Numbered from the stretch's first letter, positions 2,895-40,649 are shown. The stretch: 64,000 bases of DNA from an uncultured Planctomycetales bacterium (GCA_964474085.1 CAYYRJ010000012.1:7701-71700), one strand, 5' to 3'. Translations and numbers: made by a program. Notes: generated from the sequence alone by a model not told the origin.

Positions 2895-2959
2895 TGTAAT
2901 CTCCTGTAGAATTAACTAATTATATTGAGCCGTTATAAATTTTCAACTATTAAGAAATC

Positions 2960-4222: not shown

Positions 4223-4310
4223 CGCATCTCCTTTGTCAATTGCCACGAAGGCTTCGTTAACTTCTTGAGAATTAATCTAAAACCGAAGTTTGACGACACG
4301 ATGGCAAGAA

Positions 4311-4328
4311 TGTGAACAATCTGTGAAC
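4311..4328 (-). promoter_or_regulatory. Candidate Pho box: direct repeat TGTGAAC-N4-TGTGAAC (GTTCACA on the coding strand) with 11-bp periodicity, ~90 nt upstream of the porin start
   Basis: Two perfect 7-mers separated by 4 nt, as seen directly in the sequence; PhoB/PhoP-type boxes are 7-bp direct repeats with 11-bp spacing. Confidence 0.4.
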
Positions 4329-4336
4329 TTTGGGGA

Positions 4337-6097: not shown

Positions 6098-6099
6098 AT

Positions 6100-6792
6100 T
6101 TAATCTCTATCCTCATTAAAACGGTAACCCAAGCCGCGAATCGTTTCTAATGCTTCGCCGACTTTGCCCAGTTTCTGACGCAACCGCTTAATGTGTGTAT
6201 CGACCGTGCGTGTTGTGACATCCGCTTCGATGTTCCAAACAGCGCTCAAAAGCTCTTCGCGCGACTGCACCCGCCCACGGCGCTCGAGCAAGATCACCAA
6301 AAGTTTAAATTCCATGGGTGTGAGAATAACCTCCCTGGCCTTCACCGTGACACGATGCCGAGGAATATCAATTCCTAAGTCCCCGCTTCGCAAATTTTCT
6401 TTAGGCGACTGTTTGATTTGTCCACGGCGCAGAATCGTTTTAGCGCGCAAAATAAGTTCGCGTGGACTAAACGGTTTAACAACATAATCTTCGGCGCCAA
6501 GTTCAAAGCCGACCACGCGGTCGACTTCTTCCCCGCGTGCAGTCAACATCATAATAGGTATAGTTGACAAACGGCTATCATCTTTCAAACGCCGGCACGT
6601 TTCAAACCCGTCCATTTTAGGAAGCATAATATCGAGAATAATCAAATCGACTTTTTGAACGGATAAAAATTCAAAAGCTTCTTCTCCAGTAATCGTCACA
6701 ACGACACGAAAACCGGCCTTCTCAAAATTATATTTGACGAGCTTGGCAATATTGGCGTCGTCTTCAACGATAAGAATGCTCTCTTGAGGCAT
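6100..6792 (-). CDS. phoB: OmpR-family response regulator PhoB
   Basis: Receiver domain (VEDDANIAKL...D...LTAR) plus a winged-helix C-terminus (LTPMEFKLL..VDTHIKRLRQKL). Confidence 0.85.
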   Translation of the reverse strand: MPQESILIVEDDANIAKLVKYNFEKAGFRVVVTITGEEAFEFLSVQKVDLIILDIMLPKMDGFETCRRLKDDSRLSTIPIMMLTARGEEVDRVVGFELGAEDYVVKPFSPRELILRAKTILRRGQIKQSPKENLRSGDLGIDIPRHRVTVKAREVILTPMEFKLLVILLERRGRVQSREELLSAVWNIEADVTTRTVDTHIKRLRQKLGKVGEALETIRGLGYRFNEDRD

Positions 6793-10426: not shown

Positions 10427-12484
10427 TTAGCCGGCAGGGCTGCCGTAGTAACTGATCAGCCGTTCCTGGACGTTGAACTTTTCTTCGCTGTCCTTAGGGC
10501 GGACATACTGGCGCTGGGCCGTCAAAAAGCGAGACTTCAAATTATCTTTCCAACACATATCAAGAATGTATTGCAAATGATCGCGTACTTCTTCCTTATA
10601 AATTTCAAACAAAAGCTCTATACGGCTGTCAAAGTTGCGGGCCATCCAGTCTGCCGACGACATAAAGACGCGCGGACTGCCATTATTATTAAACGTTACA
10701 ATGCGTGTATGTTCCAAAAAACGGCCGACAATGCTTTTGACTTCGATATTCTCACTTAAACCCGCAACAGCCGGGACTAAACAACAAACCCCGCGGACAA
10801 TTAACTTGATCTTAACTCCCGCCTGTGAAGCCTCATAAAGTTTTTCGATGATCGGAATATCTTCCAGAGAATTCATTTTTGCTCGAATAAGACCGTTCTT
10901 AAATCGCTTCTGATTGTCAATTTCAGCATCAATCAAATCAAAGAAATATTTGCGCATATCATAAGGCGAGGAAACAATGCGTTTCCAGGGACTTGGGAGA
11001 GAATAGCCGGTTATGACATTAAACACATCGGAAATGTCGCGCGCAAAATCGTCATTGGCCGTGAAGTATCCGATATCCGTATAAACCCGCGCGGTTTTTT
11101 CATTATAATTTCCCGTCGACAAATGCACATAACGGCGAATGCGATCTTCTTCTTTGCGCACAATCAAAGTCATCTTTGAGTGGATTTTGATATTGGCAAT
11201 CCCATAAATCACATGGCAACCGGCATCTTCCAGAGCTTTGGCCCAGCGAATATTTTTTTCTTCATCAAAACGCGCTTTGATCTCAACTAATACCGTGACC
11301 TGTTTTTTGTTCTCCGCAGCCTCGATCAAGGCTTTAATGATCGCCGAGTCTTCGTTGGTGCGATACAGCGTCATCTTAATGGCCAAAACATTAGCATCTT
11401 TCGCCGCACTTTGAATCAAATCGATCGTCGGATAAAAGGATTGATATGGCAAGTGGACAACAAAATCACCTTGCGCGATCCGTTCAAAAATATTTTCGTA
11501 TTCAATCTTGGCCGGCAAATATTCGCGATAACACAAAGCCGGGGTATCGATAAAACGCATCAATTCAAAAAGGCATGTCAAATCCAGCGTGCTACCAATA
11601 CTGACAACTTCTTCCTTGGGAAACTCCAACCCTTGACAGAGGATATCCAAAAACTCCGGGGCACACGACTTTTCGATTTCTAAATGTACAACCTTTGCAC
11701 GCATGCGTTTTTTGACTTCTTCTTCGATGGCAATCAAAAGGTCATCGGCAAATTCCTCAGCAACATAAAGCTCGCTGTCGCGCATGACGCGAAACAATGT
11801 GTGCTCTTGCAGCTGATACCCGCGGAAAAAATTCTTCAAATAAAAACGCAAGATCTCCTCGATCAAGATAAAACTCGTCTCGCCGCGATCTGACGGCAGA
11901 CGCATAAATCGAGGAACATTTTTAGGAATCGGGACAATCGCCAAGTGCGGCTTGTCCTGCCGAATAACATTGACCGCAAAAGCGATTGTCTTCGACGGCA
12001 AAACAGGAAATGGATGGCCTTGATCAACCGCCATTGGCGTTATGATCGGAAAAAGAGTTGTTTCAAAGTACTTACGGACTTCGCGTTCCTGTTCCAGACT
12101 TAACTCTGCATAAGATTTAAAGAAAACTTTATTCTTTTCTAGTTCTTTTTTAACTTTGTTCTGATAAATTTCATAAAATTTCTTAGTCAGTAGTTGCGAC
12201 TGCTTTTTGACTTCAAAGAAAATTTCCTCCGGTAAGTAACCAAACTTGTCTTTATGATTATATTTAGAATCGATAAGCCGTTTTAAACCGGCCAGCCGAA
12301 CCATATAAAACTCATCGAGATTGCTGGTGAAAATCGCCAAGAATCTGACGCGTTCCAAAAGCGGATTGGACAAATCTAGCGCCTCTTCCAAAACACGTTC
12401 ATTAAACTTAAGCCAGCTTAAGTCACGGGCGATAAATTTTTCCTTCAGGTCAAGTGTTGTCATCAGATTTTTCCTGTATTTCAC
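10427..12484 (-). CDS. ppk: Polyphosphate kinase 1
   Basis: 685 aa with the PPK1 N-terminal signature (NRELSWL..ERVLEE..PLLERVRFLAIFTSNLDEFYMVR) and a PLD-like C-terminus. Confidence 0.9.
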   Translation of the reverse strand: MKYRKNLMTTLDLKEKFIARDLSWLKFNERVLEEALDLSNPLLERVRFLAIFTSNLDEFYMVRLAGLKRLIDSKYNHKDKFGYLPEEIFFEVKKQSQLLTKKFYEIYQNKVKKELEKNKVFFKSYAELSLEQEREVRKYFETTLFPIITPMAVDQGHPFPVLPSKTIAFAVNVIRQDKPHLAIVPIPKNVPRFMRLPSDRGETSFILIEEILRFYLKNFFRGYQLQEHTLFRVMRDSELYVAEEFADDLLIAIEEEVKKRMRAKVVHLEIEKSCAPEFLDILCQGLEFPKEEVVSIGSTLDLTCLFELMRFIDTPALCYREYLPAKIEYENIFERIAQGDFVVHLPYQSFYPTIDLIQSAAKDANVLAIKMTLYRTNEDSAIIKALIEAAENKKQVTVLVEIKARFDEEKNIRWAKALEDAGCHVIYGIANIKIHSKMTLIVRKEEDRIRRYVHLSTGNYNEKTARVYTDIGYFTANDDFARDISDVFNVITGYSLPSPWKRIVSSPYDMRKYFFDLIDAEIDNQKRFKNGLIRAKMNSLEDIPIIEKLYEASQAGVKIKLIVRGVCCLVPAVAGLSENIEVKSIVGRFLEHTRIVTFNNNGSPRVFMSSADWMARNFDSRIELLFEIYKEEVRDHLQYILDMCWKDNLKSRFLTAQRQYVRPKDSEEKFNVQERLISYYGSPAG

Positions 12485-14012
12485 GGTTTTTTATCGTCAA
12501 TGTCACACGATTTCCCGTAATCTCCTCAAAAAGTTCTTTCTTGTCTTTAAAAAAAGCCCGCTCAAGCAAAAGATTTCCCGAAGCCTGAGCGATAATATTG
12601 ACATCGCCTTTAGCGTTTAAAACGACCTCGACCTTTTTGATTTTTTGTTTATGTGATCGGTCCAAAGCATTGGAGATACGCAGCAAAGCCGAAAGTTTTT
12701 GGACCAAAATCTGATTCTCCGACGACAAAGTGCTGTAAAGCAAATGCGCATTTGACGGCGTGCCTTTGCGGTGATAGCGAGCAATACAAGCGATGATATT
12801 CATTTCTTCCTCAGTCAGACGAAACAAGCTTAAGGAACTAATCACATATTCACTGTGCTTGTGATGCGTACGGTTATTGACAAACATTCCAATATCATGC
12901 AGATAGGAAGCGAGTGTCAGATAAATCAAATCCTGTTTGTTGAGACCTAAAGTTTCTTTGAGTTGCTCAAATAAAGACTGTGAAAGCTCGGCGACATGAC
13001 GGCAATGATTTAAATCAAGCTTGTATTTTCCACAAAGATTTTGCGCAACCGAAATTAACTGTGTCGTTTTGTTGTTTTCTACAAAAAGTTCAAGCTTAAA
13101 AATCATATTTGCCAAAACCGCCTCTGCCAAAGAGGTTTCCAGCATATAAATATATTTATTTTTTGTCAGACGAAAAATCTTATTAACAATAATCGCATAC
13201 CCTGCCATAGTTTCGACGACGTCTGCCGGGATCTTGTAACTTGCGGCAACCGACTGCGGGTAACTTTCGGTAAGTTTACTCAGCAGCTCTTCAGATTCTT
13301 TAATCTTAAATTGAAAAAACTCACTCTGGCGGGTGCGGCTGGGTATAAAGCTATTCAAATACCCAGAATAATTTTCATCAACGACGATGATATCATCTAA
13401 TTTAAGATGCGGAATGCTCTTTTTGACATAAAGAATTTCATTGGTGATATATTCCTCGACCGCTTCATAAATCTCTTGAAGCGTTCCATCCAAACTGTTC
13501 ATAAAATTCTTAAGCCGCAAAGTCCCCACAGGAATCCCGACACTCATCTGCGTAAACCCTTTTTCAAGGACGGACATATCCACACTGCCGGCGCCTAATT
13601 CAACGATAAGCAAATTCTTCTGGTGAATCGGATATTTTTTCTTAAGTTTATAGGCCAAATACGCATCGATGTAATAAACAACGTCGCCGACATTTAAGAC
13701 CTCAACCTTTAGTCCCGTCTTGCGCATGACTGTGTCGACAAACATATCGCGATTAGCCGCCTCCCGCACAGCAGTCGTCGCAATAACCATGACCTCTGTG
13801 ACATCATATTCTGTCAAACGCTCTTGATACTTTTCTAGAAGTAAAATCGTCTGATTAATTGTTTCCTGGGCAATACGGCCGCGGAAAAATGTATTGCGTC
13901 CGATTGGGACCACATTTTTGAGGGATTCAAGAATCTTGATGTCGTCACCGGATTTTTCGCCAATGACAAGCTTGATCGAATTTGAACCAATATCGAGAAC
14001 TGCGGCACGCAT
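12450..14012 (-). CDS. ppx: Ppx/GppA exopolyphosphatase with a C-terminal HD domain
   Basis: N-terminal AVLDIGSNSIKLVI actin-like fold motif and an HD motif (LHDIGMFVNNRTHHKHS); the 3' end overlaps the ppk start. Confidence 0.85.
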   Translation of the reverse strand: MRAAVLDIGSNSIKLVIGEKSGDDIKILESLKNVVPIGRNTFFRGRIAQETINQTILLLEKYQERLTEYDVTEVMVIATTAVREAANRDMFVDTVMRKTGLKVEVLNVGDVVYYIDAYLAYKLKKKYPIHQKNLLIVELGAGSVDMSVLEKGFTQMSVGIPVGTLRLKNFMNSLDGTLQEIYEAVEEYITNEILYVKKSIPHLKLDDIIVVDENYSGYLNSFIPSRTRQSEFFQFKIKESEELLSKLTESYPQSVAASYKIPADVVETMAGYAIIVNKIFRLTKNKYIYMLETSLAEAVLANMIFKLELFVENNKTTQLISVAQNLCGKYKLDLNHCRHVAELSQSLFEQLKETLGLNKQDLIYLTLASYLHDIGMFVNNRTHHKHSEYVISSLSLFRLTEEEMNIIACIARYHRKGTPSNAHLLYSTLSSENQILVQKLSALLRISNALDRSHKQKIKKVEVVLNAKGDVNIIAQASGNLLLERAFFKDKKELFEEITGNRVTLTIKNREIQEKSDDNT

Positions 14013-14030: not shown

Positions 14031-15554
14031 TCAATTGCCGGTATGGCAATCGGTACAATTCATTTGTTTCCAGGATTCATCATCATTAAATGGGTGTTTA
14101 AACTCAAGCCCGTCGGCGTTTTTTTCCGTTTTACCAGCAGGGCCCTGTTCGATAATTGTATGACAGGCTTTGCAGTCTCGTGAAATCACGTGACCTTGCG
14201 ACGACTTATGCTCGCCATCGTGACAGCGAAAACACCCCGGCGAACTCCAATGGCCAATGTTCTCAGGATACACATCCCAACGGGCTTTCATTTCAGGGAA
14301 AAAATTATTTTTGAAAATATGCGTTAAAACCTGCGCCGCAGTCTTAATCTGGGTTTGATGAGCTTTGGCATATTCCGGAAATTTCCATTCATAATATTTT
14401 TGCAGCAAATCCGGAATTTCAGCCAGCGCTTGCGCTTGATTCTCATATTTCCCTGAAAGCAATTCCATACCCTTAGCCTTGATATTAGGAATCGTAAGGT
14501 CGATCTGTTCTTTGGCCAAAGCTTCATTCATCAAATCGTTGGGCGAACGAAAATGGTGAGACGGACGGTTATGGCAATCCATACAGTCCATCTTGCGGAT
14601 CTTTTCCGGGGGTGGCATAACATTTTTGTAAGGCGATTTTTCGGACGTAAAAATCATTTCCTTGCCCGTTTTATCTATGCTCTTAACCCACGAAATGGAT
14701 TGACGCTTCTGATCATCCGCCACATAATAAACTTCATTATCTTTATACATGTGCGCGTGAATGCCGGCGTTCTCGCCTTCCTTGGCCCCAACGGAAACAA
14801 GCATGCGGATATACCAACTTTTATCCTTGCTTTTATCTGACGGGAAATACGTTTTGCGAAGTTCAAAAGAACTAAAGTGTTTGCCCGGCCAATGGCACTG
14901 TTCGCATGTTTCCTTTGCCGGTCGCAAATTTTTGACAGGTGTTGGGATCGGGCGCTGATAATTCTTTTGAAGCGTCGAAAGAACCATCCGGGCACCTGCG
15001 ACCTTATAGCGAACATACCAATCCGCACCAGCGCCAATATGACATTCCACGCATTTGACTTTTGCATGTGGAGATTGAACATACATTGTATGCTCAGGGC
15101 CCATAATCTTATGGCAAACCTTACCGCAAAACTCCACCGATTCCGTATAATGAAACGCCTTGTATGACCCGATCGCCGTCATAAAAAGCAATACGAGCGT
15201 TCCTGTTGTAAAGACAAACAGCGCATTGCGATGTTCAGGCTTGGTTGGGTCCAAATAATAAATTTTGGGAGTGAGCGTTGCTTTTCCTTGCTCAACATCT
15301 TTGCGTTTACGATATGCCCCGTAAGCAATAAGGATAAGCCCCAGGATCAAAAAAGGAGGAAGCAAAATGTACGTATACATCCCCAAATACGGGCTCTGAT
15401 GCACCGCAAAGAAATCGATGCTAAACAAGAAACTTTCAATAATAAAAATAAAAAGCGCCAATAAAATACCCGCATACGTAATCGGATTATAAAAATAAGC
15501 CGAAAACTTATGTTTAAATCTACTGGAGGATTTATTGTCGCTTTTCTTTTTCAT
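14031..15554 (-). CDS. Inner-membrane heptaheme c-type cytochrome, NapC/NirT-like with two N-terminal TM helices (ImcH-like quinol dehydrogenase)
   Basis: Seven CxxCH motifs (CGKVCH, CVECH, CEQCH, CMDCH, CFRCH, CKACH, CTDCH); two hydrophobic helices within residues 20-80. Confidence 0.75.
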   Translation of the reverse strand: MKKKSDNKSSSRFKHKFSAYFYNPITYAGILLALFIFIIESFLFSIDFFAVHQSPYLGMYTYILLPPFLILGLILIAYGAYRKRKDVEQGKATLTPKIYYLDPTKPEHRNALFVFTTGTLVLLFMTAIGSYKAFHYTESVEFCGKVCHKIMGPEHTMYVQSPHAKVKCVECHIGAGADWYVRYKVAGARMVLSTLQKNYQRPIPTPVKNLRPAKETCEQCHWPGKHFSSFELRKTYFPSDKSKDKSWYIRMLVSVGAKEGENAGIHAHMYKDNEVYYVADDQKRQSISWVKSIDKTGKEMIFTSEKSPYKNVMPPPEKIRKMDCMDCHNRPSHHFRSPNDLMNEALAKEQIDLTIPNIKAKGMELLSGKYENQAQALAEIPDLLQKYYEWKFPEYAKAHQTQIKTAAQVLTHIFKNNFFPEMKARWDVYPENIGHWSSPGCFRCHDGEHKSSQGHVISRDCKACHTIIEQGPAGKTEKNADGLEFKHPFNDDESWKQMNCTDCHTGN

Positions 15555-15562
15555 AATAGAAA

Positions 15563-15600
15563 CAATAGGCTGATACCTTATTAAAGATACCAGCCTATTG
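15563..15600 (-). other. Stem-loop (10-bp stem, 18-nt loop) 11 nt upstream of the ImcH-like start codon
   Basis: caataggctg ... cagcctattg is a perfect inverted repeat; the gene downstream of it has no recognisable RBS. Confidence 0.35.
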
Positions 15601-15628
15601 TATTTAACTCAATGAAATAATCGAACAC

Positions 15629-17695
15629 TTACATCCAGTTTAAATTAACGCCCAACCAAACCTCATGCGCACGATATCCGCCGCCTAATTCGGTTTTTGG
15701 ATTTTCCTGATAGCTGTAATAGCTATATTTGGGCTCAATCGTCACTGTCTTATTCGCCGCCCACTTTAATCCGACGGAAACATCATACCAGCTCGAATCA
15801 ATCCCATAAGGAAGCCCAATAGCGGTAAAATCATCAAAATTGTCCTGCGAGGCTTTGCTAAAAACCGAATTAAGACTCATCTTCGGACTGAAGATATAGC
15901 TAGCACTCATGGACCATGTATTAACATTTGATGTAAATGCCGGAATTCTTGGTACGGCACTTCTTATTGCCGGCGTAGTCGTATTAACCAATTGACGCAT
16001 ATAGCCAAGGTCTAATAATAAACTATCCACCGGCTGAAACATAAGATCATACGTAAACGTATGCGATAACGTCAAAGCCCGTTGATTATAAGAGCCTTCC
16101 GTTCGAGCAACATAGGCATTGTCCGCATACTGATAACGCATTGAACCGGTTACTTTTTTAAGAGGCTTGACCGTCCATTTGGTCGCAACTTCTGTTCCGC
16201 CAACTTGCATAAACTCCATGAATGCGGACTTGGCAGCTGAAGAAGTCGCAGGGGTCTCCTGTTCATCATCATAATCGTTATCTACCGTCTTATGACGAAT
16301 TTGCGTCGTAAAATTAAGATATTTTGAAAGAACAGTCCGCGTTCCGGCTGTCAAAACAATCCTGTTGGTATAAATATTAGTTTCACGAAAGAATATTTCA
16401 CCCGCAGAAGCAATAGATTCACCCGCAAGGCTGTTACGATTTTCATACAACCAATTATTGATGCGACCGTATTCGACATCTCCATAAATACTGGTCTTTT
16501 TGAACCCCGAATAACGCAACCCCAAGTCCCCGCCTAAGCTGTCAATTTTGTTTTCATTCATACTAACTTCTGTCGTGTTAGCAATATTGTTGGGAGGATC
16601 TGTTCTGTCGGCTGGATCCACTGACCCGCCGCGACGACTAATAATTTCGGTCTTTACTTTTGCATTAAAAAGCAAATCCTTCGTCAATTGACTTTGGAAA
16701 TTACCTGTCACAATATTTGAACTGTATTTATTATCACCAACCCCGGCATACTTATTTTCAGCGCTGCTCGAAAGGGAACGTGGATTATTAAACTCATCTG
16801 TTTCCTTTATCGTAGCATGCTCTTTATTGTCAATTTTGGTATAACGATACGCCAAGGCAAGCATCCCCGTGTCCTGCCAAAACCATTTTTCGCCATTTAA
16901 CGTTGTAATAGACGAATTTGAGTCCAGCTCGATGGTTTGGCGACGCATCTTTTTGTCCGAAGCAGCACTCGTGGTAGAAAGAGATTTTTCGAGCCTGACG
17001 GTCCGTTCATTTAAAACATCCCACTTTTGCTCGCCTTTGACATTAAAGCCAGCAAACTCACCTTTGGAGCGCAAACCATAGCTATCAAATTTTTCATCAA
17101 CATCCTGCCAAGATGGGCTGATATTCTTTGTCAAACTTCCTACTTTAGCAGGCGTCCAAGTTAAACGCGACTTGGTGCCGTCTTTGCTATGATGGTTATA
17201 AAAAAAGCTGCTCTCTGGCAAATTCCCCAAAGTCTCTCCGATTTCAAAACCAATATGACCGATATCCATTTTATAATCTTTATCTGCATTTACCCCAGAT
17301 AACGTCGCAAACGGATAATACGTTCCACCGGTTCCATCGTAGTATTTACGAAACGTATTGTAATCGAGCTTAAAAAACCCTAACTTTTCTTTTGTAACTT
17401 CAAGATCGCCCCCAAAATCAAAATTGTTGGGAATCGCATGGCCTTCAAACGTGAAGTCTGTGTCTTTATTGATCTTACCGCTGGCGCTTAAATCTTGCAG
17501 CCCCCCGGAATAGCCGTCATTTTTCCAGTATTGTGACCGAAACTTTTCGGCATCACCCTTAACCGAAATATAATCAACCGGAACAACCGTGACAGATACA
17601 TGAGACTCCTCTGCAGCGACTGGGCCCAAAGAAGCTAAACCCGCCCCGCAAAGCGCGATTGCCCCCGCAATAACTTTTATAAAATTGGTTTTCAT
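15629..17695 (-). CDS. Large outer-membrane beta-barrel protein (porin-like sheath, analogous to MtrB/PioB)
   Basis: Signal peptide MKTNFIKVIAGAIALCGAGLASLGPVAAEE; about 690 aa rich in Y/G/N/S/T with an alternating pattern and an aromatic C-terminus; sits between two multiheme cytochrome genes. Confidence 0.65.
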   Translation of the reverse strand: MKTNFIKVIAGAIALCGAGLASLGPVAAEESHVSVTVVPVDYISVKGDAEKFRSQYWKNDGYSGGLQDLSASGKINKDTDFTFEGHAIPNNFDFGGDLEVTKEKLGFFKLDYNTFRKYYDGTGGTYYPFATLSGVNADKDYKMDIGHIGFEIGETLGNLPESSFFYNHHSKDGTKSRLTWTPAKVGSLTKNISPSWQDVDEKFDSYGLRSKGEFAGFNVKGEQKWDVLNERTVRLEKSLSTTSAASDKKMRRQTIELDSNSSITTLNGEKWFWQDTGMLALAYRYTKIDNKEHATIKETDEFNNPRSLSSSAENKYAGVGDNKYSSNIVTGNFQSQLTKDLLFNAKVKTEIISRRGGSVDPADRTDPPNNIANTTEVSMNENKIDSLGGDLGLRYSGFKKTSIYGDVEYGRINNWLYENRNSLAGESIASAGEIFFRETNIYTNRIVLTAGTRTVLSKYLNFTTQIRHKTVDNDYDDEQETPATSSAAKSAFMEFMQVGGTEVATKWTVKPLKKVTGSMRYQYADNAYVARTEGSYNQRALTLSHTFTYDLMFQPVDSLLLDLGYMRQLVNTTTPAIRSAVPRIPAFTSNVNTWSMSASYIFSPKMSLNSVFSKASQDNFDDFTAIGLPYGIDSSWYDVSVGLKWAANKTVTIEPKYSYYSYQENPKTELGGGYRAHEVWLGVNLNWM

Positions 17696-17713
17696 CCAAC
17701 ACCTCCTCATAAA

Positions 17714-18508
17714 TTAATATCGCAAATGATCATCAAAGTTCGAACCATGTACCGCCGTATGACAGCCTCCACTAAAACACGATCCTTGCGCAAGTCGAGT
17801 ATTATGCCCTGTGTTTTTTCCGATCGTCGGGAAGTTGGCCTGCGTATGACAACGCAAACACAAATTATTATCCCGCTGTACAAGCATTTTATCGTTGACC
17901 GAACCATGCACCTGATGGCAGGTCACGCAACCATCACGTAACGCTTCATGTTCAAAAACAAACGGGCCCTGCTTGCCTTGATGACATTTAAAACAAGTGT
18001 CATTGATATCCTCTAGAGCTGTCGAAGTTCCGGGTTTAACCTCTGTGCCGTGCGGATTATGGCAATCGGAACACGACATTCTGCCTTCAATAACAGGATG
18101 TTTATAAGGAAGTCTAAACTGCACTTTTTTGTCCGTATGGCATTTAAAACACGCGCTGGGGTCATTGCGAAGGCTGGCAATATTGCCTTTGCCGCCGCCA
18201 GCTTCTGCGTGAACGCTCCCCGGGCCATGGCACATTTCGCAACCATTGGCAATCCCTTCCAAACCTTCATCGCTTTCAATAGCAATCTTGCGATGCGTTG
18301 AAACTTTAAATTCTCTCGTCTCCTTCTCGTGACAGCTCGCACAGGTTTCGGTACCGACATAGGTCGCATTTTTAAAATTCTCCGCCTTGCCTGTTTCTTC
18401 TGCAGCAGCAGAAAAACAAAACAGGGCCGCGCCGCAAAACGCGAAAACACAAGCCATCACCCAGCGGCCGACGAAGACTCGGGCACAATTTGAGTCTTTG
18501 CTCTGCAT
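17714..18508 (-). CDS. Periplasmic multiheme (about 8-heme) c-type cytochrome
   Basis: Seven CxxCH motifs plus one CX4CH motif (CFSGGCH) in about 260 aa; N-terminal anchor or signal sequence; strong AAGGGGGAA RBS before the ATG at 18508. Confidence 0.8.
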   Translation of the reverse strand: MQSKDSNCARVFVGRWVMACVFAFCGAALFCFSAAAEETGKAENFKNATYVGTETCASCHEKETREFKVSTHRKIAIESDEGLEGIANGCEMCHGPGSVHAEAGGGKGNIASLRNDPSACFKCHTDKKVQFRLPYKHPVIEGRMSCSDCHNPHGTEVKPGTSTALEDINDTCFKCHQGKQGPFVFEHEALRDGCVTCHQVHGSVNDKMLVQRDNNLCLRCHTQANFPTIGKNTGHNTRLAQGSCFSGGCHTAVHGSNFDDHLRY

Positions 18509-18568
18509 ATTTTCCCCCTTGGTTTTGAAAGAAATCAATTGTTGTAAATTTAAGACGTTCATGTAGTT

Positions 18569-18847
18569 TTATTTTTTCTGGGAATCTTCAATAGAACCGG
18601 CTTTTTTATATTCTTCGGCCGTCGGCTTATCCGCGAGCGCCGTAACTTTCTTTCCATAATCATTAAGTTCATGATCGCCGTCTTTTTTGGGTAAGGCAGC
18701 GCTATGACAATCAATGCATTTGGGCTTGCCGTCTGGATAGGCTTCCTTGTAAACCTTCATCTGTCCAAGATCTGCGCGGCTAACGCTTGAAAAACCAAGA
18801 ACAAAAAAGGCAGCGAACATGAGGGTTGATAAAGTGTTTTTTTTCAT
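18569..18847 (-). CDS. Small monoheme cytochrome c (secreted)
   Basis: Signal peptide plus a single CIDCH motif in 92 aa. Confidence 0.65.
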   Translation of the reverse strand: MKKNTLSTLMFAAFFVLGFSSVSRADLGQMKVYKEAYPDGKPKCIDCHSAALPKKDGDHELNDYGKKVTALADKPTAEEYKKAGSIEDSQKK

Positions 18848-18895
18848 TTTGTCTCCTTCTCTATTATGTGGATCATTAAAAAAACATGTTATGGC

Positions 18896-19990
18896 TTACG
18901 CTAAAACTTTTTGCGCCAAACGCGCTTTGGCGATGCGGGCAAAATATTCCTGCTCTTTTTTTTCAATAATGCGTTCAACGGCAACAACCGCATCTTGCCG
19001 GCGACGCACACTGCTTTCAACAACTTGATCAAGCTGGTCAATCGTCAAAAGTTCAACACCTTCGACTAAGGCGACCTTTGGTTCAATATTGCGCGGCATT
19101 GAGATATCAATCAAAATCAGCGGCCGTCTTTTGCGACTAGCCATGACCTCAACAACCATCTCGGACTCGATCAAGTAATGCGGCGCTCCCGCCGAACAAA
19201 TACAGGCATCCACTTTCAACAAAATTTCTTTCATTTGCCAAAAACCCGCTGCAATCCCTTGAACTTCAGAGGCAACCGACTCAGCCTTATCACATGTGCG
19301 ATTCATCAAATAAATATCCCCGACATTTTTGTTACGCAATTGCTCGGCAGCCAAGTGCCCCATTTTGCCAGCGCCTATAACCAAAACAGATTTTCCATTC
19401 AAAGTGCCAAGCTTTTGCTGAATCGTCGTAATCGCAGCCCAGCTGATGGAAGAACCCCCAAACCCGACTTCGGTTTCGGTCTGTGCCTTTTTGCCGGCGC
19501 GAATCGCTAAATTAGAGAGAATATTAAGTTCGCGGGTCATCATGCCGCGAGCGCGCGAAATTTCTGCGGCTTCTTTGACTTGTCCCAAAATTTGTTTTTC
19601 CCCCAAAACCAAAGAATCTAATCCGCAGGCAACACGTAAAGAGTGTCGCACCGCTTGATCAGCTTTGTAGCAATAAAAGTTTTGCAATAACTCGGGGCTG
19701 GTTTTTATTTTTTTGACTTTAAAAAGGGCGTCTAGAATAATTTGCGGGGCATCGTTTAACAAATGCGCATAAATTTCAGTACGATTACACGTCGAGAGGA
19801 TAAAGGCGCCCAAAACAGCAGGATCATTTCGAAGGTCGCTTAATAAAAGTTCTTTTTCAATCTCTTTAAAAAAGAATTTTTCGCGCAGTTCGATGGCTGT
19901 ATTTTTGTGATTTAAACCGATGGAAAAAATATGGTCAGAGCCAGCAGAAAAAACCATTTCTGAGCAATGGCAATCTTTTTCATTTTGCAT
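18896..19990 (-). CDS. hemA: Glutamyl-tRNA reductase
   Basis: IGLNHKNTAIELREKF and TCNRTEIY motifs with an NADPH Rossmann motif (VIGAGKMG); the long ORF N-terminal extension upstream of MQNEKD/MVFSAG is judged spurious, and the exact start is uncertain. Confidence 0.8.
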   Translation of the reverse strand: MQNEKDCHCSEMVFSAGSDHIFSIGLNHKNTAIELREKFFFKEIEKELLLSDLRNDPAVLGAFILSTCNRTEIYAHLLNDAPQIILDALFKVKKIKTSPELLQNFYCYKADQAVRHSLRVACGLDSLVLGEKQILGQVKEAAEISRARGMMTRELNILSNLAIRAGKKAQTETEVGFGGSSISWAAITTIQQKLGTLNGKSVLVIGAGKMGHLAAEQLRNKNVGDIYLMNRTCDKAESVASEVQGIAAGFWQMKEILLKVDACICSAGAPHYLIESEMVVEVMASRKRRPLILIDISMPRNIEPKVALVEGVELLTIDQLDQVVESSVRRRQDAVVAVERIIEKKEQEYFARIAKARLAQKVLA

Positions 19991-20048
19991 GTATAGATAG
20001 TAATCAAAGAGACAAAAGCTTGCAACAAAGTTTTCATAAATTTTTACT

Positions 20049-21350
20049 TCAAATTTTTGTGTTGTTCGGGCGCGAATAAACAGCCTGCACAACACTGATG
20101 TTGCGGGTCTTAAAAGCCGACTGACAATACGACCAATAATAATTCCACTTGCGGACAAACGCTTCATCAAATCCCAAGGCGGCAATCTGGGGTCTTTGGG
20201 CATTAAAATTTTCCCGCCACATCGCCAAGGTGCGCACATAATGCGGCGTGATATCCTCATAATCAAACAAACACAAAGAGCCGGTGCGATTAAGCGCCTG
20301 CGTAATCCGGCTTAACGACGGCAAGAGACTTCCCGGAAAAATGTGTTTCTGTATCCAGTCAACATTCTTGCGAAAACTTTCGTAACGATGATCCGGCGAA
20401 AGAATCATCTGCAAGCCCAAAAGCCCGTCTTTGGCCAGCAGATTATGGCATTGCCCAAAAAACGTTTCTAAAAATTTATCGCCAACAGCTTCAATCATTT
20501 CTATCGAAACAATTTTATCGAACTTTCCTTCCATCAAGCGATAGTCCAAAAATTTAACCTCGCATTGTTTGTTAAGTCCTTCTTCAAAAAAACGCCGCGT
20601 CGCATAATCAAACTGCTCGCGCGAAACGGTCAATGTCGTCAGCTGACAGCCATAATTTTTGGCCGCATGAATCGCAAAGCCGCCCCAGCCGCCGCCTATT
20701 TCCAACACTTTATCCGAACTCTTTAAACGCAGCTTTTGACAAAGCTCGTCGTATTTTTGCGTTTGTGCTTCGCTTAAGCCTTGGTCGGGAGATTTGAAAT
20801 ATGCACTCGAATAAGTCATCGTGGGGTCAAGAAACAGCTTGAAAAACTCATTGCCCAAATCATAGTGAGCCGCAATATTTTTACGACTGCCATAAATGGT
20901 ATTGGCGCGCACAAAATGTTTAACGACATTTAAAATCCCAAGCCAGTTGACGAGTGTAAACTTTTTTTGGTCGGCCATCAAGGTCGGGTGATTTTCGACA
21001 TTGCGAATCATCCATTCAATAACGCGAGTGATGTCCGTCGTGTCCCAATCCCCGTCGACATAGGATTCACCAAAACCGACATCACCGGACCAGAAACACT
21101 TTTTAAACAAAGCCGGTCGACGCACGCGGATATCCGCCGTTACTCCCTGTTGTCCGTCGCCATAAATATATTCTCGCCCATCCGGCAAAGTGACAGTCAG
21201 TCGACCCTCGCGCATCGGTTTAAAAATTGCATCGAAAATAAATTCATAAAAATTTCTTCGCGACGGTAATTTTACAGGATTTAACACATCAATTTTTGGC
21301 CCAGGCACGTAAGACCTCCTTTTGCAAATGCGGATTTTCTTCTTTAGCAT
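20049..21350 (-). CDS. Cyclopropane-fatty-acyl-phospholipid synthase family SAM-dependent methyltransferase (UfaM-like)
   Basis: VLEIGGGWGGFA SAM motif and the CFA-synthase C-terminal region; the start may instead be at the internal MREGRLTV. Confidence 0.85.
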   Translation of the reverse strand: MLKKKIRICKRRSYVPGPKIDVLNPVKLPSRRNFYEFIFDAIFKPMREGRLTVTLPDGREYIYGDGQQGVTADIRVRRPALFKKCFWSGDVGFGESYVDGDWDTTDITRVIEWMIRNVENHPTLMADQKKFTLVNWLGILNVVKHFVRANTIYGSRKNIAAHYDLGNEFFKLFLDPTMTYSSAYFKSPDQGLSEAQTQKYDELCQKLRLKSSDKVLEIGGGWGGFAIHAAKNYGCQLTTLTVSREQFDYATRRFFEEGLNKQCEVKFLDYRLMEGKFDKIVSIEMIEAVGDKFLETFFGQCHNLLAKDGLLGLQMILSPDHRYESFRKNVDWIQKHIFPGSLLPSLSRITQALNRTGSLCLFDYEDITPHYVRTLAMWRENFNAQRPQIAALGFDEAFVRKWNYYWSYCQSAFKTRNISVVQAVYSRPNNTKI

Positions 21351-22068
21351 GAAACGGAATTTTTCTCAAATAAAGCACAAACGCATGAAAATGTATCAAA
21401 AAAATGACCTTCAATGTGACCAAAGGAAAGCATAAAGAAAGCCAGAAAAGATTTTTTTTGTTAAGTTCCTGACGCTCTCCAACTAAGCTGGCATAAAAAA
21501 TTTTCTCTTTGCCATCCATTTCATCGACGTGAATATCCAAACGATCAGCCGGGACTTTAAAATTAAATTCCATCGTCATCTCAAGCGATGAAAACGGGGA
21601 AATATAAAAAAACTTGTCCTGCTGTTCTTTAAAAGTACCAGCAGCAAACGATTCTTTTTTTAAAATATACGGCTTGATTTCGCCGAAAGTATTTCCGATT
21701 TCCGGCACCGAACATAGCGGCTGATCATTTTTATCAAAACAAAAATAAACCGAAAGCGGGTTAAAAACATACCCTAAAGTCCGCAGGTTGGTCAAAATCA
21801 TGATGCGCCCGACTTGATCAACAACGCCTTTCGAGCGCAAAAACTCAACCACATTTTCGCGGACACTCGTCTTTGAAAGCGGCATATGATCTCGATCATA
21901 AAAGCTGTAAGGTCGAAAACGATTATGCCCGAGGATAAAATGCTTTTTGCAAAGCCCGTCGATTTCGTCCAAGTCCAGGTAAAACATAAAAATCTTGTTC
22001 GAAAACCGATTTTTTTTAGGTTTGGTGCGCAGATGGATGACCGTGCAGTTATACAGACAAGAGTTCAT
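21289..22068 (-). CDS. DUF1365 family protein (UfaO-like)
   Basis: 259 aa with a DUF1365-type N-terminus (YNCTVIHLRTKP...MFYLDLDE); 4-nt overlap with the upstream oxidoreductase gene. Confidence 0.75.
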   Translation of the reverse strand: MNSCLYNCTVIHLRTKPKKNRFSNKIFMFYLDLDEIDGLCKKHFILGHNRFRPYSFYDRDHMPLSKTSVRENVVEFLRSKGVVDQVGRIMILTNLRTLGYVFNPLSVYFCFDKNDQPLCSVPEIGNTFGEIKPYILKKESFAAGTFKEQQDKFFYISPFSSLEMTMEFNFKVPADRLDIHVDEMDGKEKIFYASLVGERQELNKKNLFWLSLCFPLVTLKVIFLIHFHAFVLYLRKIPFHAKEENPHLQKEVLRAWAKN

Positions 22069-23333
22069 GCCCAGATATTTTCCCCGCTGATTGCACGCGC
22101 CACATCAAGCCCGGAGCTGAAAGCATCTTCGTGAAAACCATAACGAAAATAACTACCGCAAAAATAAACCGGACCCTGCGCATTAAGTTTTGGCAAATCC
22201 GCTTGGGCACGAATCGCATTGAGACTAAACAAAGGATGCTCATAATCCGTCTGCCAAAGGATTTTGGAAGGGTCCACGTGACCCGGATCATTAAGCGAGA
22301 CAAAATAATCTTTGGCCTTTGAAACTTTTTGCAAACTGTTCATATAATAAATCGTCGTCGGAACTATTCGCCCGTCTTTATCCTTGCACATCCGGTAATT
22401 CCAAGACGACCACACCCGATGATTACGCGGCATGACCGACGCATCCGTATGCAAAATGACATGATTGTGGTTATACACAAATTCTTTAAGCAGCCATTGT
22501 TCCGAGGGAGTTGCCCCATCCCCTAACAATGTTAAAGCTTGATCGGCATGGCAAGCCATAATCACAAAATCATAGCTTTTTCGATCGCCGCGCAAATCAA
22601 AAACGCTTACCTTTCCAAGCTCACGGACAACTTGCGTCGCCATGTTTCCCAACAAAACCTTTCCGCCAAAAAAGGACATCACCCGGTCACGATAAACACG
22701 ACTGCCTCCTAAAGGTGTGCGCCACTGATAATGTCCCCGGAGCCCCAAAAATCCGTGATTTTTAAAAAACCTTACCAATGTCACAATCGGGAATTTGAGC
22801 ATTTTATCCGGCGGAGTTGACCAAACGGCCGAGCTCATCGGGACAAGAAATTTATTTAAAAAATCGTCACCCAGTTTTTTTTCGCGGACATAATCCTCAA
22901 CCGTGTGAAAAGCATATTTTTCGCCATCCAAAACTTCCAAAGCCTCATGGTTAAAACGGTTCATTGCAAAAAGCAGCGCCCAAAAATTTGGGTTCAAAAT
23001 ATTGATCCGCTGCCCAAACAGCCCGTCAATTCCTGTCCCGCAATATTCCAACCCGGACGGACAATGCTGTACACTAAAAGACATCGATGTTGGCATCGTC
23101 GGAATTTCAAGCTCTTTAAAAAAACGCGTCAAATTCGGATACGTGATTTCATTGTAAACCATAAACCCCGTATCCACGTAAATAGGCTGGGAACCCTCTT
23201 TGACCGTCACAGTATTCGTATGCCCGCCGGCATAACTCTCTTTTTCATAAAAAGTAATATCGTATTTGTCTTTCAAAAAATACGCTGCGGACATCGCCGC
23301 AATACCTGTCCCGATGATGGCAACTGTTTTCAT
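22065..23333 (-). CDS. FAD-dependent oxidoreductase, amine-oxidase/phytoene-desaturase-like (UfaD-like fatty acid desaturase candidate)
   Basis: N-terminal dinucleotide motif VAIIGTGIAAMSAAYFL...E; 422 aa. Confidence 0.8.
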   Translation of the reverse strand: MKTVAIIGTGIAAMSAAYFLKDKYDITFYEKESYAGGHTNTVTVKEGSQPIYVDTGFMVYNEITYPNLTRFFKELEIPTMPTSMSFSVQHCPSGLEYCGTGIDGLFGQRINILNPNFWALLFAMNRFNHEALEVLDGEKYAFHTVEDYVREKKLGDDFLNKFLVPMSSAVWSTPPDKMLKFPIVTLVRFFKNHGFLGLRGHYQWRTPLGGSRVYRDRVMSFFGGKVLLGNMATQVVRELGKVSVFDLRGDRKSYDFVIMACHADQALTLLGDGATPSEQWLLKEFVYNHNHVILHTDASVMPRNHRVWSSWNYRMCKDKDGRIVPTTIYYMNSLQKVSKAKDYFVSLNDPGHVDPSKILWQTDYEHPLFSLNAIRAQADLPKLNAQGPVYFCGSYFRYGFHEDAFSSGLDVARAISGENIWA

Positions 23334-23335
23334 TG

Positions 23336-24379
23336 TTAACCTCTTTTTTTAAAAAGATAATGGCTGACAATCCACTCTTTTCCGCTGCGATATCCCCAAA
23401 GCTCGGCGCACGCCATAAAAAACACCCGCCAATAGACCCACCATTTTTTGTGATCTTCAGTATAAACCTCTTTTAAAATCGGAATAATCTTCTCGCGGTT
23501 TTTGTCCATATTGGCAAGCCAACATTCGGACGTTTTTTGATAATGCGTTCCCAAAACCCGCCAATGGTTTTCAATTTTAAAATGATCCTGAAAATACAAC
23601 AGCAAATGATCCGACGGCATAATCCCGCCGGTAAAAAAATATTTAGCGATCCAATCTTTCGAATCTGCCTGGTCATAAAGATACGCGTGTTCTCGATGCG
23701 TAAAAATATGGACAAACAATTTTCCGTCGACTTTCAGAAAAGAAGCGGCCTTGGCCAAGAGTTTTTCGTAGTTGCGCATATGTTCAAACATCTCAACCGA
23801 AACAATGCGATCAAAACGCCGGGGCGTGTCAAAAACATTCATGTCACAGGTGATAATCTCAAGATTTTTAATATTGCGCGCCTTGGCTTGACTGTCGATA
23901 TATTGCTTTTGTGTGCGCGAATTAGAAACGCCGACAAATCGGCTCTCGGGAAACTTGGCGGCCATAAACAAAGATAACGAGCCCCAACCGCAGCCAAATT
24001 CTAAAACATCTTGGCCCGACGCAAGATCAGCCCGCTCAGCGCTTATGGTGAGCATATCTTTTTCAGCCTCAGCCAAATCGACAACCCCATCACGAAAATA
24101 ACATGAACTGTATTTCATATGGGGCCCTAAGACCAGCGAAAAAAATTCCGTCGGGACTTCATAATGCTGTTCATTAGCCTCTGGGGTATTGATCGCAATC
24201 GGGCTGGCTTTAAGTTGATTAATCAGTTTGATAAACCGCGCTTGCCCAAACTCAAGGCCATCCAAATTTTCAGCGACCAACTTTTGCCGTAAAAGTTCGC
24301 GAATCCCAAAACGAATCACAAAGTCCGGCAGTAAATTCTTTTCTAATAATCCTTGCGAAAATGTGACGAGATTAGACAT
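23336..24379 (-). CDS. Second CFA-synthase-like SAM-dependent methyltransferase
   Basis: VLEFGCGWGSLS SAM motif; the start at MSNLVTFSQGLLE fits family N-termini and abuts the DUF1295 stop. Confidence 0.8.
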   Translation of the reverse strand: MSNLVTFSQGLLEKNLLPDFVIRFGIRELLRQKLVAENLDGLEFGQARFIKLINQLKASPIAINTPEANEQHYEVPTEFFSLVLGPHMKYSSCYFRDGVVDLAEAEKDMLTISAERADLASGQDVLEFGCGWGSLSLFMAAKFPESRFVGVSNSRTQKQYIDSQAKARNIKNLEIITCDMNVFDTPRRFDRIVSVEMFEHMRNYEKLLAKAASFLKVDGKLFVHIFTHREHAYLYDQADSKDWIAKYFFTGGIMPSDHLLLYFQDHFKIENHWRVLGTHYQKTSECWLANMDKNREKIIPILKEVYTEDHKKWWVYWRVFFMACAELWGYRSGKEWIVSHYLFKKRG

Positions 24380-25193
24380 TGCGGACCTTTCTTTTGGGTA
24401 ATGGAATAAACAGACTTGTCGATTGTTGGTACCGACGATAATCCTCACCTTTTGAAATCAACGCCTGGGCTTCGGCAAACGGAACACCCGTAACATTCAT
24501 CAAAAGATGGTACATAATGACTGGGCCCAGGAAAGAAATCCAACCCCACGGACTTGCAAGCGCAAAAATAAAATAGCCGACCCACATCAACCATTCAAAA
24601 AAATAATTAGGATGCCGCGAGTAATACCACAAACCCTGATCACAGGTTTTTCCTTTATGTTGCGGATTCGCCTTAAATTGTTTTAATTGTTCGTCAGCGA
24701 TAATCTCGCCTGCCAAGCCGACAATCCAAATCAACACCCCAACGATTTCAATTGGCCAAAGAACCGGTCGCGGATTAATCGCAATCAAAAGAAAAGGAAT
24801 CGCCAAAACAATATCCAAAAGCGCTTCAAATTCAAAAAGCGCCAAAAACTTCAAATTTATATTCCCCCCCCAATCACGGCGAAGCTTCTGGTAACGCTTA
24901 TCTTCACTTTTTTCACGCAAAATCCTGATCGTCAACAAATGACTCAAGCGCAAACCCCAAATCGTGACCATGCCCAAAATCATCGACGAACGTAAAGAAT
25001 ACCCACCGCCTTTTTGAACATACCACCACGTCAAAAGCACCAGCCCCAAAGCCCAACCGATATCAACGACCGCCGCATTTTTTATCAAAACACTTAGTAT
25101 CCAAAAAAGAAATAATAGCGCGGCAACCAGAAGAAAACCTTCTACAACAAGAGGAGTTGGAAATACAAAAGAAGACATAGAGCCATTAAACAC
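24372..25193 (-). CDS. DUF1295 family membrane protein (steroid-5-alpha-reductase/ICMT-like fold)
   Basis: Polytopic 273-aa protein with a conserved C-terminal NYFFEWLMW-type motif. Confidence 0.75.
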   Translation of the reverse strand: MFNGSMSSFVFPTPLVVEGFLLVAALLFLFWILSVLIKNAAVVDIGWALGLVLLTWWYVQKGGGYSLRSSMILGMVTIWGLRLSHLLTIRILREKSEDKRYQKLRRDWGGNINLKFLALFEFEALLDIVLAIPFLLIAINPRPVLWPIEIVGVLIWIVGLAGEIIADEQLKQFKANPQHKGKTCDQGLWYYSRHPNYFFEWLMWVGYFIFALASPWGWISFLGPVIMYHLLMNVTGVPFAEAQALISKGEDYRRYQQSTSLFIPLPKRKVRNV

Positions 25194-40429: not shown

Positions 40430-40649
40430 AGGGGATCTCCTTGTAAAGTTAAATAAAACTGTAATGGGAAATTTTTTAGAACAGAGAATTAGACTTTGCA
40501 CGACTGTAAAAAGAATATCACAAAGATATCAGCGCCGCAATCGTTAAAACAAAAGAATACAAAAATAATAGTTTGCAAGCTTATTAATTGCAAACACTTA
40601 TAAAAAAATTATTGGCAATGTATGCCTTATGTATTAATTATGCACAGGC

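Follow-up and report, generated by a model that had tools for sequence, protein, structure and literature searches.

A predicted trans-envelope porin-cytochrome module with MtrA- and MtrB-related proteins and a putative ImcH-type cytochrome in DNA from an uncultured Planctomycetales bacterium

Results

Gene content of the locus

The stretch of DNA analyzed here, 64 kilobases (kb) from an uncultured Planctomycetales bacterium (GCA_964474085.1, CAYYRJ010000012.1:7701-71700; the whole of it is called the window), carries between positions 14031 and 18847 a compact cluster of genes for three c-type cytochromes and one outer-membrane β-barrel, for which an initial annotation had proposed a role in electron transfer across the cell envelope. 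All long open reading frames (ORFs) in 14031-20266 lie on the minus strand. In the direction of transcription they comprise hemA, the gene for a monoheme cytochrome c of 92 amino acids (aa), a 282-aa ORF for an octaheme cytochrome, a 693-aa ORF for the barrel, the gene for a 507-aa heptaheme cytochrome, ppx and ppk. Intergenic gaps amount to 48 nucleotides (nt) between hemA and the 92-aa gene, 3 nt between the octaheme and barrel ORFs, which share one reading frame, 74 nt between the barrel and the 507-aa gene and 18 nt between the latter and ppx. The four co-directional genes listed in the initial annotation and the adjoining hemA are thus all in place.

From the cysteine and histidine frequencies of the window, 0.0026 CxxCH motifs are expected per 1000 aa. 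The three cytochrome ORFs hold 14 of them, and no further CxxCH occurs in any other ORF of at least 60 aa in the 64 kb. The four-gene cluster is therefore real and not a chance pattern.

The octaheme cytochrome is related to MtrA

The octaheme ORF extends from 18562 to 17714 (282 aa), and a start at 18508 that is backed by a Shine-Dalgarno sequence yields a protein of 264 aa (17714..18508, minus strand). In the same way, the barrel ORF (17710..15629, 693 aa) is shortened to 688 aa when the Shine-Dalgarno-backed start at 17695 is used, and 264 and 688 aa are also the lengths that gene callers give near-identical database proteins. The cytochrome contains seven CxxCH motifs followed by CFSGGCH, a CX4CH motif, as the last one, in agreement with the initial description of a periplasmic protein of about 260 aa. 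Since it possesses a Sec-type cleavable signal peptide and no further hydrophobic segment, it should be periplasmic; the membrane anchors of an integral inner-membrane protein, which would have spoken against the proposed function, are absent.

When all sequences in the PDB were searched with the octaheme protein using phmmer, the best match was the 333-aa chain 6r2q_A (E 7e-34, 120 bits). The entry 6R2Q is titled 'Structure of the Mtr complex' and lists chain A under the molecule name 'Cystathionine beta-synthase'. On the basis of its size and its ten CxxCH motifs this chain is taken to be MtrA, and the entry is the Shewanella baltica MtrCAB structure. The best match in NCBIfam was the decaheme DmsE family (TIGR03508, E 5e-49), with a score of 167.1 bits that stays under the 192.2-bit cutoff; Paired_CXXCH_1 from Pfam (E 7e-24) and the GSU2203 decaheme family from NCBIfam were also matched, and two models for NrfB pentaheme subunits gave E values of 1.1e-09 and 8.1e-08.

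Seven genuine decaheme MtrA/MtoA sequences from metagenomes were aligned with the window protein and with four relatives. The eight motifs coincide with MtrA hemes 1, 2 and 5-10, and hemes 3 and 4 are absent from the window protein as well as from the four relatives. All eight heme motifs and nine further histidines are invariant in 52 octaheme homologues, such that bis-histidine ligation of every heme is possible. Judged by these sequence comparisons, the octaheme cytochrome is a clear MtrA homologue devoid of hemes 3-4, which sharpens its original classification as a periplasmic relay of the MtrA/OmaB type.

The barrel is a remote homologue of MtrB and PioB

The barrel protein (15629..17695, minus strand) contains only two cysteines, both of which reside in the signal peptide. 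The mature barrel has none, and CxxCH motifs are lacking. Pfam and NCBIfam scans assigned the window protein to no family. The comparison with the MtrB/PioB model PF11854 that had been proposed as a check failed to connect the two: no match was obtained with 40 members of the barrel family even at E values up to 10. Likewise, the profile of the barrel family found no match among the PDB sequences.

A different picture emerged from structure. The AlphaFold2 model calculated with 40 homologues (predicted local distance difference test score, pLDDT, 86.7; predicted template modeling score, pTM, 0.77) is all-beta from residue 37 to the C-terminus and consists of about 26-28 long strands, according to our count of DSSP elements, without a plug domain. 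Among the PDB structures searched with Foldseek, MtrB (6r2q_B) was the best match (E 1.9e-11, template modeling (TM) scores 0.67/0.71), and the next matches were all 22-strand TonB-dependent transporters with TM scores of about 0.42. Identity as a TonB-dependent transporter is excluded by the missing plug domain.

For a comparison at the level of profiles, mtrA loci were fetched from metagenomes with an MtrA fragment and the ORF directly downstream was taken as the reference MtrB. Five such ORFs were confirmed as MtrB_PioB (PF11854) with E values of 1e-138 to 1e-241, and 29 sequences were aligned. With hhalign, the barrel family matched the 29 MtrB/MtoB sequences at 96.8% probability (E 3.1e-10) over 584 collinear columns that span nearly the full length of both, whereas reversed profiles gave 0.1% (E ~0.45) and block-shuffled ones 2-5% (E ~0.01). 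Identity between the two families is about 13-15%, and the CXXC pair of MtrB/MtoB (C42 and C45), invariant in the 29 sequences, is absent from the window barrel. Because the alignment covers the full length and the controls fail, the barrel is a remote MtrB/PioB homologue, that is, a very divergent full-length member of this superfamily that is beyond the Pfam model and lacks the CXXC motif. The initial annotation had correctly described a barrel of the MtrB size class, about 690 aa long and without CXXC; its suggestion of a distinct family does not hold. The pairing of such a barrel with a cytochrome is backed by structure, by profile homology and by gene adjacency in every related locus examined, and a match to any characterized but unrelated family was not found.

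The inner-membrane heptaheme cytochrome has the architecture of ImcH

The 507-aa protein (14031..15554, minus strand) carries a CX3CH motif (CGKVCH) at residue 143 and CxxCH motifs at 168, 217, 324, 441, 461 and 500, and has three hydrophobic segments at approximately 20-52, 56-82 and 110-131. The comparison with NapC/NirT that had been proposed earlier gave a match of its N-terminal part to the corresponding Pfam domain above the cutoff (29.6 versus 24.1 bits), and NrfH was matched weakly. ImcH proteins are defined by a length of 495-519 aa, three N-terminal transmembrane helices, an atypical CX3CH next to the transmembrane region and six CX2CH motifs (PMC6295460). Geobacter sulfurreducens ImcH (GSU3259) is 507 aa long, with heme motifs at 132, 156, 205, 311, 428, 448 and 486 and transmembrane segments at 13-35, 45-67 and 100-122 (PMC6295460, Table S3). 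The heme spacings, 24, 49, 107, 117, 20 and 39 residues in the window protein, compare with 24, 49, 106, 117, 20 and 38 in GSU3259, and five relatives of the window protein show the same pattern. An ImcH-type identity is therefore supported by length, number of transmembrane segments and heme spacing relative to the published GSU3259 coordinates. The earlier assignment as ImcH-like stands in this respect; the two transmembrane helices and seven CxxCH motifs given at that time have to be revised to three helices and six CxxCH plus one CX3CH. The protein is a putative quinol oxidase or quinone reductase by analogy.

The closest named relatives, 53-59% identical, are annotated as 'NapC/NirT family cytochrome c' and stem from Candidatus Omnitrophota. 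The ImcH survey lists three ImcH homologues in Omnitrophica, together with CbcL homologues (PMC6295460). Cluster look-ups revealed no accession common to the relatives of the window protein and the Omnitrophica ImcH homologues of Table S3.

The small monoheme cytochrome

The first gene of the cluster (18569..18847, minus strand) encodes the 92-aa monoheme cytochrome c of the initial annotation, with a single CxxCH (CIDCH), a strong Shine-Dalgarno sequence and an N-terminal signal peptide that leaves a mature protein of about 67 aa. A Pfam scan gave no family for this protein. By analogy with MtoD, it is proposed to act as a periplasmic electron shuttle.

The module is conserved in relatives

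A word-indexed search retrieved 43 relatives of the barrel, and a full search with a hidden Markov model (HMM) through 1.84 billion representatives of 50% identity clusters yielded 1044 at E <= 1e-3, of which 478 reached E <= 1e-30. Eleven related loci were compared, nine reached via barrel relatives (L001-L009) and two via ImcH relatives (L090 and L091). An octaheme-type ORF with seven CxxCH and one CX3-4CH motif lies directly upstream of the barrel in 11/11 of them, even though barrel identity to the window protein falls from 95% to about 21% over L001-L009, Verrucomicrobiota included; in two of the nine barrel-derived loci this ORF had been overlooked by the gene callers. The synteny contradicts a chance clustering of the genes and provides the conservation that had been called for initially. 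Named relatives of the window cytochromes belong almost exclusively to Candidatus Omnitrophota, and the source of the window is probably a member of this or a related group. Many of the top ImcH and octaheme matches agree in the length of their longest contig, in some cases only 8-25 kb, which suggests that they lie on common contigs.

The inner-membrane component is linked less strictly. The imcH gene adjoins the octaheme-barrel pair in L001, L005, L006, L090 and L091 and is located about 3 kb away in L007 (6/11 loci). In L090 (Eisenbacteria), ccsA and resB are read from the opposite strand and are followed by octaheme, barrel, monoheme and imcH; in L091, a 1.17-Mb contig from Omnitrophota, the order is hemA, resB, ccsA, monoheme, octaheme, barrel, imcH and a cbcL-like gene. 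Such CbcL-like genes, with 11 CxxCH motifs and a cytochrome b domain of the Ni_hydr_CYTB type, directly follow imcH in L091 (8513-10393) and L007 (3929-5785).

Homologues of the 92-aa monoheme cytochrome occur near the module in L002, L005, L090 and L091, and in L007 imcH is immediately preceded by two tandem copies (2012-2287 and 1669-1992). Both L007 copies lack the histidine that is kept in the other homologues (H60 in the window protein), and one of them has neither a methionine nor a second histidine in its mature part. In L003, the barrel is followed by an unrelated-looking monoheme ORF instead of the 92-aa type.

The barrel family comprises two architectures, namely bare barrels of about 690 aa and proteins of 800-914 aa that carry one or two N-terminal cytochrome c domains of the PSCyt1 type ('Planctomycete cytochrome C'). 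Fusions of this kind are encoded in L008 (8001-10307) and L009 (1869-4613), in both cases with a cytochrome gene of the 7+1-motif type directly upstream, and are furthermore represented by P0337, P0344, P0349, P0353, P0357, P0367 and P0387. The one PSCyt1-barrel cluster with organism names consists of proteins from Roseibacillus (Verrucomicrobiota) metagenome-assembled genomes. In these proteins, the fused monoheme domain may take over from the separate small cytochrome. With the monoheme homologues, the monoheme ORF of L003 and the fused cytochrome c domain taken together, a one-heme partner repeatedly accompanies the barrel.

Genes for heme supply and cytochrome maturation are a recurrent part of the neighborhood. 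ResB and CcsA of maturation System II and heme-synthesis genes flank the module across several phyla (L006, L007, L090 and L091), and hemA adjoins it also in L005, L007 and L091. In L007, hemA is followed by genes with Pfam matches to porphobilinogen deaminase/HEM4, ALAD and an aminotransferase, which are probably hemC/D, hemB and hemL. In L006, Rieske and cytochrome b genes come after the module and COX2 is nearby.

In L003 (4945-7210), a distant relative, the pair comes after genes for a multicopper oxidase, a CarboxypepD_reg-domain protein and an Aq_1264_TM protein and lies downstream of genes for a P-type ATPase, a hemerythrin and a Crp-family regulator. These neighbors may represent a different metal-related context for the same conduit.

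A conserved hairpin precedes imcH

A hairpin (15562-15601, minus strand) with a near-perfect 18-bp stem and a 4-nt loop fills the 74 nt that separate the stop codon of the barrel gene from the start codon of imcH. It gives a terminator-like match and, as RNA, a minimum free energy of -28.7 kcal/mol (z -6.9). Its arms recur in L001 (2908-2957) and L005 (10096-10133), and the arm sequence hardly differs in a relative with a barrel identity of only 70%. The imcH gene has no Shine-Dalgarno sequence, and an outer helix pairs with its AUG. The element could be an intra-operon terminator or attenuator, an mRNA-stabilizing element or a translational occluder.

Genomic surroundings

The gene directly upstream of the module, hemA for glutamyl-tRNA reductase (18896..19990, minus strand; TIGR01035, E 3e-97; Pfam GlutR_N and Shikimate_DH), is the only gene for heme supply or maturation that adjoins it in the window. 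The ORF as listed runs from 20266 to 18896. The family match begins only at residue 113, which makes 19990 or 19957 the likely start; the listed ORF, with a TTG start at 20266, overlaps the adjoining upstream gene and almost certainly has to be shortened.

The rest of the window has ordinary chromosomal content, including pst/pho genes, ppk/ppx, phosphoenolpyruvate carboxykinase, PAS-domain kinases and genes for lipid modification. On the flanks of the module (104-6792 and 10427-14012) there are phosphate-related genes for two ABC-transporter permeases similar to PstC/PstA, a PstS-like periplasmic binding protein, a porin of the Porin_5 family and a histidine kinase/response regulator pair similar to PhoR/PhoB. 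Directly downstream of imcH follow ppx and ppk, a linkage that is retained in L005. On the other side, co-directional minus-strand ORFs of 433, 259, 422, 370 and 273 aa are situated upstream of hemA (20049-25193). By sequence they resemble a cyclopropane-fatty-acid-synthase-like methyltransferase, a DUF1365-like protein, an amine-oxidase-like flavoprotein and a second methyltransferase, and the 273-aa ORF, the one that was scanned, is DUF1295/steroid-reductase-like; the run would be a lipid-modification gene set. A 1443-aa ORF at 36170-40501 (minus strand) had no Pfam match at E <= 1e-4.

Discussion

A candidate four-component electron conduit

The comparisons described above establish the MtrA and MtrB homology of the two outer-membrane parts and the strict pairing of their genes. 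On this basis we consider it probable that the cluster encodes a four-component trans-envelope porin-cytochrome electron conduit, with electron flow somewhat more likely to be directed outward. Judging from its family, the ImcH-type heptaheme cytochrome, anchored in the inner membrane by three helices, would transfer electrons to or from the quinone pool. The 67-aa mature monoheme protein would ferry electrons over the periplasm, as suggested by its signal peptide, its conserved linkage and the analogy with MtoD. The octaheme cytochrome would be seated in the lumen of the plug-less barrel of about 26 strands and pass electrons through the outer membrane. As no surface cytochrome of the MtrC/OmcB type is encoded here, its last heme would react directly at the mouth of the barrel, as has been proposed for MtoAB and PioAB. 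HemA in the window, and ResB/CcsA in relatives, could provide heme and serve cytochrome maturation.

Direction of electron flow and alternative explanations

An outward direction is somewhat more likely than an inward one because the inner-membrane partner is ImcH, joined in relatives by a CbcL-like cytochrome, both of which are known from metal reduction in Geobacter. With outward flow, the organism would respire extracellular acceptors in soluble or colloidal form, for example chelated Fe(III), humic quinones or a partner cell. It is less probable that the conduit runs inward in the manner of MtoAB and PioAB, such that Fe(II), reduced humics or a cathode-like donor reduces the octaheme cytochrome at the barrel mouth and electrons proceed via the MtoD-like monoheme protein to ImcH reducing quinone, to a bc complex or to an oxidase. 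The four-part logic of the module is the same as that of the mtoA-mtoB-mtoD-cymA cluster, and the lack of a surface MtrC-type cytochrome is a property of the oxidizing MtoAB and PioAB systems; Rieske/cytochrome b genes after the module with COX2 near it in L006 and a multicopper oxidase adjoining the pair in L003 would fit in as well. On the other hand, ImcH homologues have been reported only from Fe(III) reducers and read as quinol oxidases in the 2018 survey (PMC6295460), the CbcL-like partner in L007 and L091 recalls the reductive pairing of ImcH and CbcL in Geobacter, and the window contains no genes for an oxidase, a nitrate reductase or carbon fixation.

The window might also show just a part of the system if the pair feeds a separately encoded extracellular terminal reductase or a large surface multiheme cytochrome. 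DmsEF serves DmsAB, and MtrAB serves MtrC, in that way. The best NCBIfam match of the octaheme protein is the DmsE family, no more than 64 kb of the genome are visible, and an extracellular multiheme cytochrome is present in some of the related porin-cytochrome clusters of Verrucomicrobia (He et al., 2017; PMC5615132). We nevertheless regard this arrangement as improbable, since in 11/11 related loci no such partner adjoins the pair and the components that stay linked are the four small ones. Even less credit is due to the view that a common porin or transporter is encoded here next to periplasmic cytochromes of respiration, for instance NrfH/NrfB-like accessories of nitrite reduction, and that the clustering of the genes has no mechanistic meaning. 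Weak matches to NrfH and NrfB are indeed present, yet the MtrA match is far stronger (E 7e-34 compared to 1.1e-09 and 8.1e-08 for the NrfB models), there is neither a plug domain nor a gene for a catalytic reductase, the adjacency of octaheme and barrel genes is strict from 95% down to about 21% barrel identity, and the full-length profile homology to MtrB is specific, with controls that fail.

Several observations weigh against a four-component conduit or against its outward direction. An extracellular MtrC/OmcB-type cytochrome or a terminal reductase is encoded neither in the window nor beside the pair in the 11 loci, and with eight hemes the chain is shorter than that formed by the ten of MtrA, so that the surface may be out of reach unaided. 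The Mto-like composition, together with the bc-complex and COX2 neighbors in L006 and the multicopper oxidase in L003, argues for electron uptake. The inner-membrane partner is not fixed because imcH was not found in the sequenced neighborhood of L002, L003/L004, L008 and L009, and the assignment as ImcH derives from architecture and published coordinates rather than from direct alignment. Finally, the AlphaFold2 model of the octaheme protein is poor (pLDDT 60, pTM 0.42), presumably because it was modeled without hemes, and a Foldseek search with this model retrieved no meaningful match.

More tentatively, the module could be seen as a deep and hitherto unrecognized lineage within the Mtr superfamily, one that either gave rise to decaheme MtrAB or split off early, that is distributed across Omnitrophota, Eisenbacteria and Verrucomicrobiota and forms a self-sufficient eight-heme wire without a surface cytochrome, tied to ImcH and sometimes to CbcL. 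In ultra-small and possibly host-attached Omnitrophota, such a wire could serve electron exchange with partner cells instead of minerals. We put this forward as a doubtful though attractive extension of the conduit model.

Implications

Extracellular electron transfer is known mainly from Shewanella (CymA plus MtrCAB) and Geobacter (ImcH/CbcL plus Pcc/Ext). The module described here joins an outer-membrane conduit of the MtrAB type to an ImcH of the Geobacter type in a single gene cluster. Searches with the MtrB HMM (PF11854) will not detect the barrel, which carries the annotation 'hypothetical' and is not covered by a Pfam model, and surveys built on such models probably saw only the cytochrome halves. 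If the module is functional, the range of Mtr-type electron transfer would come to include candidate phyla with a high abundance in groundwater, sediments and anoxic lakes, the 'novel' porin-cytochrome system of Verrucomicrobia would be identified as a divergent Mtr system, and synthetic biology would gain a compact conduit of four genes and eight hemes. The gene content predicts electron exchange between this lineage and minerals, humic matter or other cells.

Comparison with known systems

The arrangement closest to that in the window is found in the Mtr, Mto and Pio systems, in which the gene for an MtrA-homologous cytochrome likewise lies directly upstream of that for a plug-less MtrB-like barrel of about 690 aa. 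With MtoAB and PioAB the module further shares the lack of an MtrC-type surface cytochrome. The mtoA-mtoB-mtoD-cymA cluster of Sideroxydans unites the same set of functions, i.e. a barrel, an MtrA-type cytochrome, a small monoheme cytochrome and an inner-membrane cytochrome linked to the quinone pool; the monoheme protein of the window differs, however, in having no detectable family match, and a heptaheme ImcH of 507 aa takes the place of the tetraheme CymA. Compared with MtrAB, eight hemes are present instead of ten, MtrA hemes 3 and 4 being absent, and the last motif is CX4CH. Unlike MtrB, the barrel is not seen by PF11854 and has no N-terminal CXXC, and ImcH, instead of CymA, MtoC or PioC, is the partner at the inner membrane.

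With Geobacter, the similarity is greatest at the inner membrane. The window protein resembles ImcH (GSU3259) in its length, its three transmembrane segments, its CX3CH and six CxxCH motifs, its NapC/NirT-like region and a heme spacing that agrees within 1 residue, and the CbcL-like cytochrome beside imcH in L007 and L091 is reminiscent of the ImcH/CbcL combination. In the 2018 survey, no mtrAB or mtoAB was seen to adjoin any imcH (PMC6295460); in the window, by contrast, imcH comes directly after an MtrAB-type pair. At the outer membrane, the Pcc system of Geobacter (OmbB-OmaB-OmcB) also pairs an octaheme periplasmic cytochrome with a barrel. Pcc porins, with 18-22 predicted strands, are much smaller than the 688-aa barrel of about 26-28 strands described here, the octaheme protein of the module is of the MtrA type, and the dodecaheme outer-membrane cytochrome OmcB has no counterpart. 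Barrel size and the missing OmcB-type partner exclude identity with Pcc.

A porin-multiheme cytochrome system (porin-MHC) described for Verrucomicrobia and the Planctomycetes-Verrucomicrobia-Chlamydiae (PVC) superphylum consists of a large porin with no fewer than 20 transmembrane motifs plus a periplasmic cytochrome with eight conserved heme sites, and was described as lacking homology to the Mtr and Pcc systems (He et al., 2017, mSphere; PMC5615132). Our barrel family has Verrucomicrobiota members with an adjoining 7+1-motif cytochrome, and the two are probably the same family, matched here by description. Since its Verrucomicrobial members fit that description, the family has probably been seen before without being recognized as Mtr-related. 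In contrast to the system as described, both parts of the module are Mtr homologues, clearly so for the octaheme protein and remotely for the barrel, and Verrucomicrobial barrels of the family differ from the window barrel by one or two fused N-terminal PSCyt1 domains.

The distribution of the module also sets it apart. In a 2022 survey, mtrCAB was confined to Proteobacteria, Acidobacteria and Gemmatimonadetes, with none in the PVC group, and a 2025 study reports it in Desulfobacterota. Surveys based on FeGenie count 'Candidatus Omnitrophica' among the taxa with iron-cycling genes, and our literature search found no paper that describes this module, in Omnitrophota or otherwise. Its hosts, Omnitrophota, Eisenbacteria and Verrucomicrobiota, are unlike those described for Mtr, and it is widespread in little-studied phyla. 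The module is not a new kind of system, because porin-cytochrome conduits are well known and both of its outer-membrane parts are Mtr homologues; it differs from the described Mtr systems in the number of hemes, in a Pfam-invisible barrel without CXXC, in its ImcH partner and in the organisms that carry it.

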